Shown: positions 1-18,000 of the stretch, piece after piece | How positions within the stretch are numbered: the first letter of the stretch is position 1 | How the letters are laid out: the number at the start of each line of letters is the position of its first letter | Source of the DNA: a virus | Taxonomy: Duplodnaviria; Heunggongvirae; Uroviricota; Caudoviricetes | Direction: 5' to 3' (one strand) | Length of the DNA stretch: 42,950 nt | IMG/VR virus record: IMGVR_UViG_2778261513_000004 | Made by a program: the position numbers

Positions 1-3000
1 CCAGGTGACCGGCTCACCTTTTTCGTTCTGCTCATTACAGAAAAAATAACGTTCTCCACCGACCTCTGTCAGGTCGATTTCCCAGAGCACCAGGCAGGCC
101 GACTGCTCCGCACGGATGCATTCATTCAGTGTTTCCTGTTGTATGTCCTGCATCAGATCACCACTTCGTCAAACTGACACGAAAAATCGGTATAGGTGAT
201 ATGTTCTGTAGCGGACCACGTTCGACACACCACTCTTATTTTTCTGTTAACACCCGGCGGGCGCCAAAAAAAAGATTTATAACCTCCATGCCGGACTAAA
301 AACTGTTCAAATGAATCACGATCATTCGCCTCGACCCTAAAATCACAGGTGAAAACACGCTGAGAATGATTAAGTCCATTTGGACTTCGTTGCTCATAAC
401 CATCGCCAAATCTTACAGTTTTTATCGATGGTTTATGTTCTGTTTTCATTCCATCCTCTGGTAACCAGTGAAATTCTTCCGTATTAGCCACTTAACATTC
501 CCCCATCACGTCGCATATTTAACAAAGTGCCCTGCACCCGCTGATCAACCATCCCCATAAGTGTTTTTATTGCCTGAGGGCCAATTTCTCCATTCTGGCC
601 ATCATTTTGGATAGTAATTTGGTATACAGGGGCATAGGTAATATCTCCGCCACCATTACCACTTTTACTATTAATAGCTCTGACACCAAGAGAACCATCG
701 GAAGTTCGCGTTAATGGCATAATAGCTTCCGGTCCAGCCTCACCAAAAACACCAGCCCCTTTTGCAAAAGCAAAAAATTGCGGGGAATCATAAATACCGT
801 TCGAATACGTGCTCAATGACGGAGACTCATAAACACCGCCCTTTGCATTCGGAATAAATTTACTAATAGCACTCCCGATAGTGCCTAAAATCCCACCAGA
901 AGAACTGTTACCAATGCTGTCGAAAATCCCAGTAATTGAAGCCTTTAATGCTATTCGACTAAGATCAGAAATCACGGAAGTAGCGAAAGAACGAAAATTT
1001 GCCTTGCCTGTCGTGACAAACTCACCCAGCGCATCGGTCATCCCATTAAACATCTGAGTCGTGGTTAATTTTATCTGCTCACTGATATCCTTAGTGTCAT
1101 CCAGCCAGTTATTGAATCCCTGGGAGGCACCACTAACCCAGTCTCCTGCCTGAATATCGAGCTGCTCGTTTTTCTGTCTGACAATTTCTTTTTCTCGTTC
1201 CAGAGCATCATTCAGAGCCTGCATTTTCTCCTGAAAAACATGATCTGACATTCCACGGGATTTATCTGCATAGTCACGTTCAAGTTGCAGACGCTGGTTG
1301 TTATATTCACGTTCAATCCGCAGTAACTCCTGCTGGCGTTGCTGATTTTTATCACCAAGCCCATAACCAACAATCTGAATATCATATCCCTGCTGACGAT
1401 TATCAATCGAAGCCTGCAATGAATCACGCCATGCGGCTATTTCGACAGATTCCTTGATTAGCCTGTTATTTTTTTCAATCGCAACATTTTTCTCCATCAA
1501 CGCGGTTATTTCTTCCCGGTGTAAGAGAAGCGATTTCTGATCCTTGGTTAATTTCGATAACGGTCGTGACTCCAGATCGGCAATCTGCTGACGCCACTTA
1601 ACCAGTTCCTGTTCAGAGGAACTTAATTTAACTCTCAATTCAGCTTGTGAACTTAGTAACGCATTCTGTTGATTCAGATGATCAATCATTCGTTGGGCAG
1701 CATCATCCGAATAACCTTTCGCCTTTGGTTGCTTTGGTTCTTTATAACGCTCATTTATTTGAGCGACAAGATTATTATATTCTTCCTTTGAATACTGATT
1801 CTTTAGCTTTTCCAGTTCTGCAAGTTCACTGGCTCTCTGCTGCTCCCGGGTTTGATATTGTTTTGAAAAGGCATCTGCTTTCTGTCTGAGTTCAATTCCT
1901 TCCTGTTGACGCTTGTTGTAATCGTCTATTGATGAATTTAGTACGTCCTGAGCAATTTTTTCTGATTGAAGTGCACTCAATTGCTGTTTTAATTGCGCCA
2001 GCCTTTTTTTTAGAGCGCCACCATCTCCAATACCTGCTAACCCGAAAATCCCTGGTCGGTTATTTTTTTCTATTTCATCAATTTGGCGGATGACATCTGC
2101 GATTTTTTGGTCAATAGATACCTCCCGCCCAACATTCAACATGGAATCCCAGGCCAATTTTGCGGAGTTAGAAACTGCTTTCCATGCAGCCTCAAGATAA
2201 CCAAGATTTTCTTTCATCTGGCTGGAACGTTGAATCATTGAGGATGAATATGCTTCCGTCGCAATACGAGCAGCCTCCTGTTGGTTCCCTTCATCCTGTA
2301 GCGCCTTAATCTGGTTATAAGTCGCCAGTGTCAGAAAATGGTACTGATCATTAAGTTTTGATATGGCACTGACAGGATCCTTTGCTATTTCATTGAAATC
2401 ATTAACCAGTTGATCGGTCGATATTCCAGTTAATTCGCTCGTTTTTACTATCGCTGTCGTCACCTGCTCCAGCGAACTACTCGCTACCTTTCCCGAACGC
2501 ACAAGCTGGTTTAATACAGCCGCCGCAGCACCAGTTGTCGAATCAGCTGCATCCCCGGCACGTTGAGCTATATCCGCCAATTGCCCACTCGTTGCCCCCA
2601 ACTGATTTCCGGTAAGAATAAGAGATTTATTAAATTCGTCCTGCTCCTGAGAGCCTTTATAGTAAGCCAGCCCCAGAACACCAACGGCTGCAGCAGCCAA
2701 GGTAAAAGGATTAATTAACCCCATTACATAAGAACCAACACCTTTGATCGCCGGGCCAATACCACCGAACATATCTTTTAGCTGACCGCCTTGCTGCATT
2801 AACACCATAAAAGGTGACTGGCCTGTGGACAATCCAACTACAATATCAGTCATTTGTGCAGGCAACATGCGCACAGCAAAAGCCGTTTGTTTTGCCGACA
2901 TTCCGGTTTTACTTAATTGCGATTCAGTAGCCTCAAGCTCTCTCCGCATAGCACGGAGTTTTCCTGAGAGCTCCTCATACATTTCAGGAGAAAGCATCCC

Positions 3001-15000: not shown

Positions 15001-18000
15001 GGGCTGTTGCGTAATTCAGTCCCCTTGCTTCACACCATGCAACCGGAGATATACCGGAACGGGTGTATTCAGCAATATATTCCTGCTGCAACGCCCCCCA
15101 GTCCGGTCTGTTCATCAGTTAGTCCTGATTTTTATCCACCCTGAGTAACTCACGCAGAGCAAAGGCATCCCCTTTTCTGGCAAGCTTAAACAATGCGGCT
15201 CGTAGCTCGGCTTCACCTTTCGCTCTTCCCTTACGGATGGATGCGTAAAAATTTGTCATTGCTTCCCGATTTTCTTTCAGTCGGTTCAGATCAACATCCA
15301 GAACATCAGCGATTTGTTGTGCGGTCATCCGGCACGCAGCCAGAGACTCGACTTTCGAATACGGAATCATTTGTCACCCCCATTGGTATGCAGGGTGTCT
15401 TCTTCCTGTATTTTTCGTTAAGGATTTTTACTGCAGCGTTGTTCCAGGTGACCTGATGGTGAATGCGTTTATGGCTGGCCCCCATCAGTGAGATTTTTAC
15501 GCACGAGGGCGCATACATGACGGAGTAAAAACTTTTAACGTAGGTTCCGGAATCCAGATACAGCTCGGTCATTCCGCCGCTGTTTTTCTGCGTCTGTTTC
15601 TGTCCCAACTGGACAGCACCAATCGTCATAAACAATTCACCACGGCGACCGAGATTCGTGTAAGTATTCACATCCTCGTTAATGCGCCCCATGAATGAGA
15701 ACGGTCGCTCAACCGAACAGATAAAGCTGTTCATTGCCTTGCGTTTCACCCATGAAGCATGGCCGCCATTGTCACCAAGAAAATCCCCGCCCTGCGACAT
15801 AGCGATGGAAAGCGCAGGAATTGATTCGTAATACGCCAGCATTTCAGAAAGGATTGCGTCCAGTTTCCTTATCGGGAAATAGGCCTGGTCATAGTTGTGA
15901 TCCACCCGAAACTGGAACTCATGATAATCATCATCGAACTGAATGAAGTATTTACACCCGACCTGTTTTGCCAGGTCGAAGCAGGCATTACGTGCGTAAA
16001 AAATTGAGCGACGGTCACCGAAATTATCGGCTTCGTCAAAACGACTGGCGATATCGGCTTTAGAAAACACCAACACCTGTTTACCAAATTCAGCTGTGTA
16101 CTGATGCCGGGTTTTATCTTCATCATCAACGACGATAAAAATTTTACCGGTATAGCCAGCTCGACGTAATGTCCGGTAAGTCAGAACTTTGTCCGGTCGC
16201 CCGTGAGTCAGAATAAAGGCGCAAAAATCATCACGCATATTCCTCCTCCCCGCCGTGCATGATCTCCACCATGCGTTGCGTCATCCGGACAAATCCATTT
16301 TCAATGGCCTGCTGATAATCAATGATCACCAGCGCCGACTCCTCAAAAAGGTGCTGAATTTCAGCGGGGGCGTGAGCGTAATAGTCCGCAATTCTGCTGA
16401 AATCAAACACCGTGTGACGCTCTGCTGCACACAGGAGGAATTTTTCGATATCAGGATCAAGGGACGCCGAACGTATCCGGCTGACCAGTTCCTGAGTTTT
16501 CGTATCGTCGTACAGTTCGCCGATATCCGGTTTATCGCCTGACGGCTCATAAACAGGCGTATCAATTTTCGTCGTGTACGGCTCCTCCTCAGTTCCGGTG
16601 CCCGGCAAAACTTCCGTCAACAGTTCGTCAATTTCTGTTTGGCTGAATCCTGTCAGGGAGATATCAAAATCAGCATTGATTAGCTCTGACAGTTCCATCC
16701 GTAACAGATCTTCATCCCAGCCAGCGTTAAGCGGCAGACGATTATCTGCCAGGCGATACGCCTTTTTCTGATCCTCCTTCAGGCAAGACAAAACAATGAC
16801 CGGAACGGAATCCATTTTGAGCACTTCAGCCGCCATAACGCGACCGTGACCAGCAATAATTTCGCCCTTTTCGTCAATCAGCACTGGATTAGTCCAGCCA
16901 AATTGCTTAATGCTTTCTACCAGTTGAGCCACCTGCTCAGGGCTGTGGGTCCTGGCGTTGTGCGCATATGGAGACAGTTTTTGTAACGGGCGATAGACGA
17001 TCTTCAATTTCTCGCTCATACAGCCTCGCATTATGAATAAAAAAGCTCACCAGCAGCCAGTGCGCGGGGTGCGCAGCGGGGGCTGTTGATGAGCCAGGCA
17101 TTATCGCAGCCCCTCGCTGAAGGGCTGCTTTAATGCCTGTTACTCACGAATCAATCGAATCTTGTTACCATTTATTTCGATGCGTGAATATTTAGCATTG
17201 CCATTAACATATGCAACAATCACTTTCTCCCCTATAGGTTTCCACATAATTACCTCCAAAATCCCAACCTTCTGAAAAACTGGTTTAGAATTGACAATAA
17301 AAAACCCGCCGAAGCGGGTTTAACTAGACTTAATTATTTAATCAAGCTGGATAATATCGTTCAGCACCGGATTCATAATAGGCCCTTCAATGTTCTGTCC
17401 TTTAATACTAACAGGAATCGGCATTTCAATATGAATTGGCACATCCATACGTCCATTTACAGGATGAACAAATGATAAGCGCATAGCGCCGTTTTCTATC
17501 CCAACAAAATTACCAATTTGCATGCCATAAAGGCTAAACATCTTCCCTGCCGCAGGTCCAGTTCCACCATTCTCTAAATAATAAGCAATGCTTTTCATAT
17601 TTTCTCCAATTGTTGCGTACGCATGGAGAATTTATCACCGAGAACAAGCTAACTAATTGATAATGATCATTTATTTTGACGCAGCATCGAACACCATCAA
17701 TAAGATGACAGACCTGCGAAGCCGTATCGAAAAGCTGTCGAATCTTATCCAGGCTAACGCATCCCACCGATAAAAAAGGCACCAGTATCGCTACCAGTGC
17801 CCATTTCCCGGCATTCTGTGTGTCCAGTGCTTTCGCGTCATGTCACCACCAACGCACAGTCCAAATAATAATAGCAACCGCCACAAGGCGAATCGCAAAG
17901 GCTGCAGCCCTTGTTAGATAAAGGCTCGCAGGAGTTTCCACTTCTATACCTTTCATAATGGACAACCTCAAAAAGAATCTTTTATACTTTCCCTCGAGGA

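Follow-up and report, generated by a model that had tools for sequence, protein, structure and literature searches.

The textbook example of a genome built as a modular mosaic is the lambdoid phage, in which junctions at gene boundaries are a classic feature. The 42,950-nucleotide (nt) stretch analyzed here (the window; IMG/VR virus record IMGVR_UViG_2778261513_000004) raises the question of where such junctions lie in a set of virion genes that joins a tail tip of the phage lambda type to a head of another kind, and of whether these genes still form a working unit. Our reading, to which we give a probability of nearly nine in ten, is that a full-length Rac-type lambdoid prophage of Escherichia coli has its late (virion) operon, apparently intact, at positions 1-15370, that this operon is siphovirus-type and mosaic, and that the mosaic would consist of three layers: a head/shaft lineage, a diverged pair made of the C-terminal third of the tape measure protein (TMP) and the tip protein M, and a near-lambda L-K-I-J segment. 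The module is already known, its arrangement being widespread and previously described, and the mosaic proposed in a first-pass annotation of the same DNA is right in outline: a non-lambda head, neck and shaft does carry a lambda-type tip, although the "lambda-like distal tail" of that annotation amounts to only 153 nt within the window.

An open reading frame (ORF) scan placed every long ORF of positions 1-15370 on the minus strand, in a single uninterrupted late operon. Profile searches gave, in order of transcription, the terminase small (TerS) and large (TerL) subunits, portal, MuF, scaffold, coat, neck set, tube, chaperones, an Ail/Lom protein, TMP, M and the start of L (Table 1), and from TerS to M each expected virion gene is an uninterrupted ORF with the length seen in relatives. 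The gene content thus comprises both terminase subunits, a DUF4055 portal, MuF, scaffold, a P22-family coat without protease, a neck of Ad1/Hc1/Neck1/terminator, the tube, and G and G-T chaperones. In the ORF list no protease gene separates portal from coat, and the earlier annotation therefore had the order portal / Mu-F / scaffold / capsid right, as the Pfam assignments confirm. This order, together with a coat protein above its Pfam threshold, points to a head module of the P22-coat-family, protease-less type; the coat is 75% identical to that of HK639 and 80-82% to those of Klebsiella phages, while a PDB sequence search with it gave no match. Rfam and tRNA scans found nothing within positions 1-15370, and base composition was useless for locating breakpoints (GC 0.42-0.51 over 1-17 kb, with no step).

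At the end of the first chaperone ORF lies a slippery heptamer, A AAA AAG (4822-4816), beyond which the -1 frame runs open as far as 4481. This heptamer is kept, in the same place and with the same relation to the -1 frame, in the phage-collection record vB_EcoS-666R9, in E. coli K-12's cryptic Rac prophage and in two Klebsiella phages, down to relatives with 64% amino acid (aa) identity. This conserved site and frame therefore support a G/GT-type chaperone pair, despite the lack of sequence similarity to lambda G or T; with the ORF overlap and the heptamer both in place, a fusion product made by programmed -1 frameshifting is predicted. The same G/GT-style logic stands upstream of TMP in lambda.

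Among 5,426 complete E. coli genomes, 693 have at least 80% of the module's length; in 28 of these the copy is 99% identical or more, and the best hits reach 99.5-99.8%. Ten phage-collection records match it over 95% of its length at 94.4-94.5%. A per-gene profile, run on one record (vB_EcoS-666R9), is fairly flat at 90-97%, the exceptions being two short ORFs and the Ail/Lom insert. The first-pass annotation had taken a uniform identity profile to a single reference phage as the sign of a non-mosaic module; formally such a profile exists here, identity to vB_EcoS-666R9 and the nine other records being 90-98% over the whole region, yet all ten belong to the same lineage and carry the same mosaic, and the uniformity therefore indicates that the arrangement is old and stable.

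The best-hit copy, a prophage of E. coli WY517-2 (the twin), is 99.7% identical to window positions 1-17136 and adjoins uspF-ompN as K-12 Rac does, ttcA / uspF-ompN being the Rac locus; the window itself has no host flank. At its other end, positions 40970-42950 match K-12 intR-ralR at 96% nt identity, the RecE regions are 92-93% identical to K-12 Rac, and K-12 intR, recE and the early genes overall reach 92-96%. Pfam recognised Exonuc_VIII and integrase domains, and Rfam the RalA small RNA (197 bits, 41216-41394), which overlaps the ralR region; these matches point to a left arm with Rac-type integrase, RecE and RalR/RalA. Three K-12 genes align with the window, namely ynaK (16766-17063, 90% nt), ydaY (4520-5161, 86%) and ynaA/tmpR (2783-3748, 92%), and by these alignments K-12 cryptic Rac is a deletion remnant of this virion module. 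In K-12 MG1655 (1425335-1427389) ynaK is fused directly to ydaY, 11.6 kb running from TerS through the tube gene having gone; a second deletion took two-thirds of TMP through J, so that ynaA/tmpR corresponds to window 3748-2783 only, and K-12 has no Ail/Lom insert.

A different virion module is found in Rac-SA53 (KU052037), a published LT-IIa prophage that shares the early, lysis and toxin regions with the window but whose virion genes are unrelated (baseplate, lytic transglycosylase). The only virion-gene overlap is in the middle of TerS (window 14231-14963), annotated there as "gpOterS; fusion of two genes by deletion"; in a per-40-aa identity profile the window's TerS shares 62-100% with Rac-SA53 over residues ~50-290 and 43-62% over its last ~70 residues. 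LT-II and pertussis-like toxins are known to reside in full-sized Rac-like prophages, described by Jobling (PMC5917428, citing Jobling 2016). The twin is annotated with the same toxin cargo and the toxin ORFs of the window match the same families; these genes mark the prophage as one of the full-length Rac type with LT-II toxin that has been described before.

A rival view is that the operon no longer works and is decaying, as in the cryptic prophage K-12 Rac. K-12 Rac does show decay of this module by deletion, the closest "phage" records are in silico predictions, and the ParB-like ynaK gene is annotated as a pseudogene in the twin. However, the genes from TerS to M are uninterrupted and of the expected lengths, the frameshift site is conserved, and identity is high and uniform in hundreds of genomes with no frame disruptions noted; we regard decay as distinctly improbable.

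We then consider how the parts of this apparently intact operon are related to other phages. BLASTP comparison of 19 window products with 22 lambda virion proteins gave only four real matches: the L fragment, M, TMP and the Ail/Lom protein (all others E > 0.05). None of the head, packaging, neck, tube and chaperone proteins has a match below E=0.05 to any lambda virion protein, which bears out the earlier statement that capsid, Mu-F-like protein, portal and terminase do not resemble lambda; lambda V, U, Z, G, T, Nu1, A, W, B, C, Nu3, D, E, FI and FII likewise show no similarity to window proteins, and the Pfam families (Terminase_6N/6C, DUF4055, Mu_F, DUF6651, P22_CoatProtein) differ from the head/packaging set of lambda (Lambdavirus). 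TMP is 28% identical to lambda H over 846 aa (E 1.65e-74; PDB chain 8iyk_H, E 3.1e-67). M was said at first to match lambda closely, a view that has to be given up: its aa identity is only 41% with lambda M (E 3.6e-31) and 38% with the M protein of Gifsy-2, and blastn found no lambda match in its DNA except in the last ~22 nt, and none anywhere in TMP. M and the TMP C-terminal domain are nonetheless present and adjacent, suggesting a lambda-type tip; both have homologues in the lambda tail tip structure (8IYK), with the TMP of the window 224 aa longer than that of lambda.

The relatives of the head and shaft were found with a tblastn matrix of window proteins against nine references, from which the extents of the TMP alignments were also taken. 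Klebsiella phages ST405-OXA48phi1.3 and 5 LV-2017 and Erwinia phage Gungnir39 carry TerL to chaperones in the order of the window at 50-88% aa identity, with both chaperone frames, except that their Neck1-like protein is only 32-37% identical; against the Klebsiella phages TerS reaches ~40% and TerL 87%. The tube protein is 67-72% identical to those of Klebsiella and Erwinia phages and has no similarity to lambda V. The two Klebsiella phages have an AAAAAAG frameshift site like that of the window, whereas Gungnir39 has no heptamer there. All three phages are without M or L and have a DUF1833-type tip instead. HK639 shares another part of the module: it has portal, MuF, scaffold and coat at 50-75% aa identity with the gene order unchanged, but its terminase is unrelated, its adaptor, head-closure, terminator, tube and chaperone genes give no match, and M and TMP are at ~30%.

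HK97 and Gifsy-type phages had been put forward as references for the virion module, and as head sources HK97 and Gifsy-2 were rejected: terminase, portal, capsid and tube show no similarity to either by tblastn, and no head, neck, tube or chaperone protein matched HK97, Gifsy-2 or N15 at E<1e-3. Matches to HK97 and Gifsy-2 were confined to TMP (29-32%) and M (36-38%), except that Gifsy-2 also matched in L (73%) and Lom (42%). Lambda, Gifsy-2, HK97 and N15 have in common with the window only TMP and M, Gifsy-2 additionally L and a Lom homologue.

Within TMP the two sets of relatives meet. Residues 1-409 match ST405-OXA48phi1.3 at 65%, residues 1-737 match 5 LV-2017 at 44% and residues 1-748 match Gungnir39 at 34%, while the matches to the lambda group (including Gifsy-2 and lambda) run from residue ~215/270 to 1077 at 26-32%. 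Residues ~750-1077 (window 487-1470, including Tape_meas_lam_C) match lambda-tip phages only. Outside its own lineage the best match of this C-terminal third is ~41% aa, in long-tailed Stx phages, and the DNA of the TMP C-terminus and M (window 156-1470) finds at best 66% nt identity over 22% of its length. From where the alignments end, the boundary between head/shaft and tip lies inside TMP, at aa ~740-750 (window ~1470-1500), and we infer that it is an ancient junction.

This placement differs from that of the first-pass annotation, which had the modules joined once, after the major tail gene and ahead of the tape measure region; a single crossover there would have joined a foreign head and tube to a lambda-like TMP, M and L. 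It is true that protein similarity to lambda starts at TMP (28% to H), with none in tube or chaperones, and that the tube/TMP interval varies among relatives; the variation is due to the Ail/Lom indel, and this insert is all that the interval holds. Tube, chaperones and N-terminal TMP are, at 72%, 64% and 65% aa, syntenic with Klebsiella phage ST405-OXA48phi1.3 and, on that evidence, are co-inherited. TMP remains matched to 5 LV-2017 and Gungnir39 as far as residues 737 and 748, and there is no lambda DNA similarity in TMP or M save in the last 22 nt of M, which is itself only 41% identical. Because of the co-inheritance in the Klebsiella phages a tube/TMP junction was rejected, and we hold it to be very improbable; the breakpoints lie at the M/L boundary and, as read above, inside TMP.

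It is at the M/L boundary that lambda DNA proper begins. Window positions 1-175 match lambda 13407-13581 at 93.7% nt (blastn, E 6e-72), the sole lambda DNA match in the region, and the 51 codons of L inside the window encode a product 92% identical to lambda L, as first claimed; Pfam Phage_tail_L scored 24.6 bits on this fragment, just below its cut-off of 25, but the similarity to lambda is far beyond chance. In a three-way alignment the window is ~50% identical to lambda through M and then 94-100% from the last ~22 nt of M (TTTGAcGAaGTGGTGAtCTGATG) into L. Of L, K, I and J the window holds the 153 nt of L; the rest was read in the twin and in vB_EcoS-666R9. In the twin the lambda-like DNA corresponds to lambda 13407-18450 (L, K, I and about three-quarters of J) at 93.2%; all but two of its 200-bp bins are at 90% or more, and nothing is detectable beyond window position ~175. 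The C-terminal part of J and the position of lom differ between lambda and the twin. The sharp breakpoint with lambda is therefore the M/L gene boundary, a step function at window ~153-175, and the step, followed by ~93% nt identity through L-K-I-J, argues for a comparatively recent homologous exchange with its crossover in the short conserved M/L patch. Lambda, Gifsy-2 and N15 all keep the C-terminal motif that M has at this place. Relaxed homologous recombination is how lambdoid mosaics arise, lambda-Rac exchanges being among the cases (PMC3945230); a crossover at the conserved M motif fits such short-patch recombination and fits equally well a random crossover followed by selection for intact genes. 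As a separate observation, the L fragment (window 1-100) shows no difference from lambda in its last ~95 nt (100% identity), whereas vB_EcoS-666R9, otherwise closer, differs there at 9 positions, which suggests continuing fine-scale exchange with lambda-like phages inside L.

Could the same pattern have arisen with no recombination, the near-identity of L-J being the work of extreme purifying selection while M, TMP and the rest diverged vertically from a lambda-like ancestor? M and TMP are true distant homologues of lambda M and H, and to that extent a common ancestry of the tip is real. But identity rises from ~50% to 94-100% nt within ~20 nt and stays high over the next 5 kb, at silent sites too; no lambda homology is detectable at the sequence level in head, neck and tube, yet these have clear relatives elsewhere; and Rac-SA53 joins the same early region to a wholly different virion module. 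We find strictly vertical descent barely credible. To the junctions being artefacts of assembly or scaffolding in a chimeric contig we give practically no credence: nothing was found in its favour, the same contiguous layout recurs in 693 complete genomes (28 at 99% or above) and in independent phage-collection records, and ORFs cross both junctions cleanly.

The three-layer reading suggests the following history. TerL through chaperones and the N-terminal two-thirds of TMP would form the first layer, a head/shaft lineage common to Klebsiella/Erwinia phages that have unrelated tips; the C-terminal third of TMP and M would be the second, an old, diverged branch of the lambda-type tip (28-41% aa to lambda); and L-K-I-J, from the last ~22 nt of M onwards and ~93% identical in nt to lambda, would be the third, gained by the comparatively recent exchange. 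In the assembly that the gene content predicts, a scaffold-dependent, protease-independent head of the P22 family would be filled by a Terminase_6-type enzyme, probably by the headful mechanism, and closed by a neck of the Ad1/Hc1/Neck1/terminator type. The tube would polymerise round the 1077-aa TMP with the help of G and G-T, giving a tail ~1.26 times as long as that of lambda by the established dependence of tail length on TMP length, to which it is proportional, and the tip would be nucleated by lambda-type M-L-K-I-J. Because the N-terminal two-thirds and the C-terminal third of TMP come from different lineages, the hybrid protein would link one type of shaft to another type of tip.

Between chaperone and TMP genes, a minority of the lineage appears to have added an Ail/Lom gene that brings a terminator of its own. 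The insert gives way to ~150 bp in vB_EcoS-666R9 and K-12 Rac and is present in 19 of the 5,426 complete E. coli genomes, against 693 with the module; a distant DNA search of the phage collection with this segment found nothing longer than 41 nt. The protein is 31% identical to lambda Lom (E 1.8e-21) and 42% to the Lom homologue of Gifsy-2. The insert resembles the known morons of lambdoid tail operons, being the same kind of extra gene with a terminator-like hairpin between essential tail genes and missing from close relatives. HK97 has, by its annotation, the moron gp15 at this same chaperone/TMP position, whereas an Ail/Lom gene there was not seen among the references examined: Gifsy-2 carries its Lom homologue between M and L, and lambda has lom after J.

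Several points weigh against the reading we favour. Intactness was judged from ORFs and from isolated phages, HK639 and Gungnir39, that share parts of the module only, and the production of particles, which the module may direct, is a prediction from its genes. The near-identical "vB_EcoS-...R" records are, according to a preprint, prophages predicted by PHASTER and not sequenced virions, for which reason they are no proof of function. How far the lambda-like cassette extends is taken from the 99.7% twin, in another genome. The boundary inside TMP, placed by the ends of local alignments, could instead reflect faster divergence of a tip-binding domain, with no discrete crossover. Headful packaging is read from family membership and tail length from protein length. 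As for the Ail/Lom gene, the scanner found no consensus promoter, and a candidate (TTGACT-N18-TTTAAT, 4412-4383) was picked out by eye only.

Table 1. Features of the virion module and its junctions, by position in the window.
Feature	Positions	Strand	Basis
Tail tip protein L, first 51 codons, running off the left edge of the window	1..153	-	92% aa to lambda L, E 1.6e-32
Recombination junction, last ~22 nt of M (C-terminal motif F-D/E-E/Q-V-V/I)	153..175	-	three-way DNA alignment, blastn end-points, 200-bp bins
Tail tip protein M homologue, 112 aa, deeply diverged lambda type	153..491	-	Pfam Phage_min_tail E 1.7e-31; PDB chain 8iyk_M E 5.8e-25
TMP, 1077 aa, composite	484..3717	-	Pfam TMP_2, TMP_4, Tape_meas_lam_C (E 1.5e-25)
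Strong terminator-like hairpin, 10 pairs (7 G-C) then T-run, between Ail/Lom stop and TMP start	3741..3763	-	pattern scan
Moron-type insert, 774 bp	3746..4519	-	blastn gap against relatives
Ail/Lom outer-membrane beta-barrel, 178 aa, signal-like N-terminus	3787..4323	-	Pfam Ail_Lom E 2.9e-27, OMP_b-brl E 5.8e-27; same RefSeq name in twin
T-like -1 frame extension of chaperone	4481..4822	-	sequence and translation; phrog_1189
Tail assembly chaperone, G-like, homologue of K-12 ydaY	4810..5271	-	phrog_313 E 1.1e-46; 86% nt to K-12 ydaY
Tail tube protein, 320 aa	5318..6280	-	Pfam Phage_tube_2 E 4.7e-32; PDB chain 8xan_B E 2.1e-12
Tail terminator	6307..6699	-	Pfam Phage_tail_terminator_5; phrog_179 E 6.3e-41
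Tail completion / Neck1, HK97 gp10 family	6696..7076	-	phrog_169 E 3.6e-54; RefSeq name in twin
Head closure protein Hc1	7077..7463	-	phrog_161 E 1.7e-24
Head-tail adaptor Ad1	7460..7855	-	phrog_493 E 2.5e-47
Small conserved ORF after coat; true start probably internal (RefSeq: 225 nt)	7859..8134	-	phrog_1514 E 7e-37
Major capsid protein, P22 coat family	8127..9266	-	Pfam P22_CoatProtein 44.5 bits, cut-off 24
Scaffolding protein, DUF6651	9366..10175	-	Pfam DUF6651 E 2.6e-61; phrog_206 head scaffolding protein E 9.4e-24
Mu F-like minor head protein	10234..11349	-	Pfam Phage_Mu_F 38.5 bits, cut-off 29.6
Portal, DUF4055 type	11330..12736	-	Pfam DUF4055 E 5.8e-45; 68% to annotated HK639 portal
TerL	12739..14049	-	Pfam Terminase_6N E 3.7e-33, Terminase_6C E 2e-10
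TerS, 364 aa, chimeric	14021..15115	-	Pfam Terminase_2; phrog_51 E 4.9e-71
Short ORF directly preceding TerS, in part similar to TerS; possible DNA-binding partner	15119..15370	-	phrog_309 terminase small subunit, E 2.5e-22

Among the relatives of the head module, Gungnir39 shares its head-to-chaperone genes with the window at 48-77% aa (the Neck1-like protein at 32%), yet its coat (22726-23697) gives no match to that of the window; it looks as if the coat gene alone had been replaced in a head module that is conserved in the rest.

Immediately upstream of the terminase genes lies a ParB_N-domain protein (16231-17031, minus strand), the N-terminal part of which matches a PADLOC type II methyltransferase model (E 2.5e-37); K-12 ynaK is a remnant of this gene. 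It adjoins a gene for a "TET-associated glycosyltransferase" (TAGT; 15306-16238, minus strand, E 5.8e-36), near which no TET/JBP gene is evident. The two are possibly a DNA-modification pair.

The remaining cargo lies outside the virion module; its toxin and AriA/AriB genes are on the minus strand. Just downstream of the lysis genes are the LT-II genes (18533-19670), known as cargo of Rac-like prophages (PMC5917428): the A subunit at 18891-19670 (Pfam Enterotoxin_a, E 4.9e-117) and the B subunit at 18533-18934 (LT-IIB, E 1.2e-41). A second AB5 toxin locus (21238-22495, GC ~0.35) stands between Q and the holins and encodes a Pertussis_S1-like ADP-ribosyltransferase (21770-22495) and a weakly Pertussis_S2S3-like B subunit (21238-21687); it is annotated EplA/EplB in the twin and in Rac-SA53, and one prophage thus carries two AB5 toxins. 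Farther on, a segment of GC 0.32 (25918-28029) holds AriA (26827-28029; PADLOC E 2.6e-41, AAA_15/AAA_21) and AriB (25918-26820; PADLOC E 4.2e-9, DUF4435), probably a PARIS-type anti-phage defence system; the twin has different genes at this position. The sok antitoxin RNA (25035-25210, 105 bits in Rfam) adjoins a hok-like gene, and sok and RalA make two type I antitoxin RNAs.

A more general idea can be drawn from the two breakpoints, although we think it rather unlikely: that TMP is a modular adaptor, its N-terminal two-thirds going with tube and chaperones and its C-terminal third with M and the tip, and that the F-E-Q-V-V patch of M is a recurrent crossover hotspot. If so, the breakpoints of hundreds of E. 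coli prophages should cluster at both of these sites, in place of a scatter later sifted by selection, and whole L-K-I-J host-range cassettes would be exchangeable between otherwise unrelated siphophage shafts.

As it stands, the module is present in about one in eight complete E. coli genomes and the finding matters little beyond housekeeping. What is gained is the placing of breakpoints at the 3' end of M, inside TMP and inside TerS, and a module recognisable as the ancestor, still without deletions, from which ynaK, ydaY and ynaA remain in K-12 Rac. The prophage is toxin-converting, with LT-II and a pertussis-like AB5 toxin, and whether its virion module functions therefore bears on the mobility of the toxin genes.

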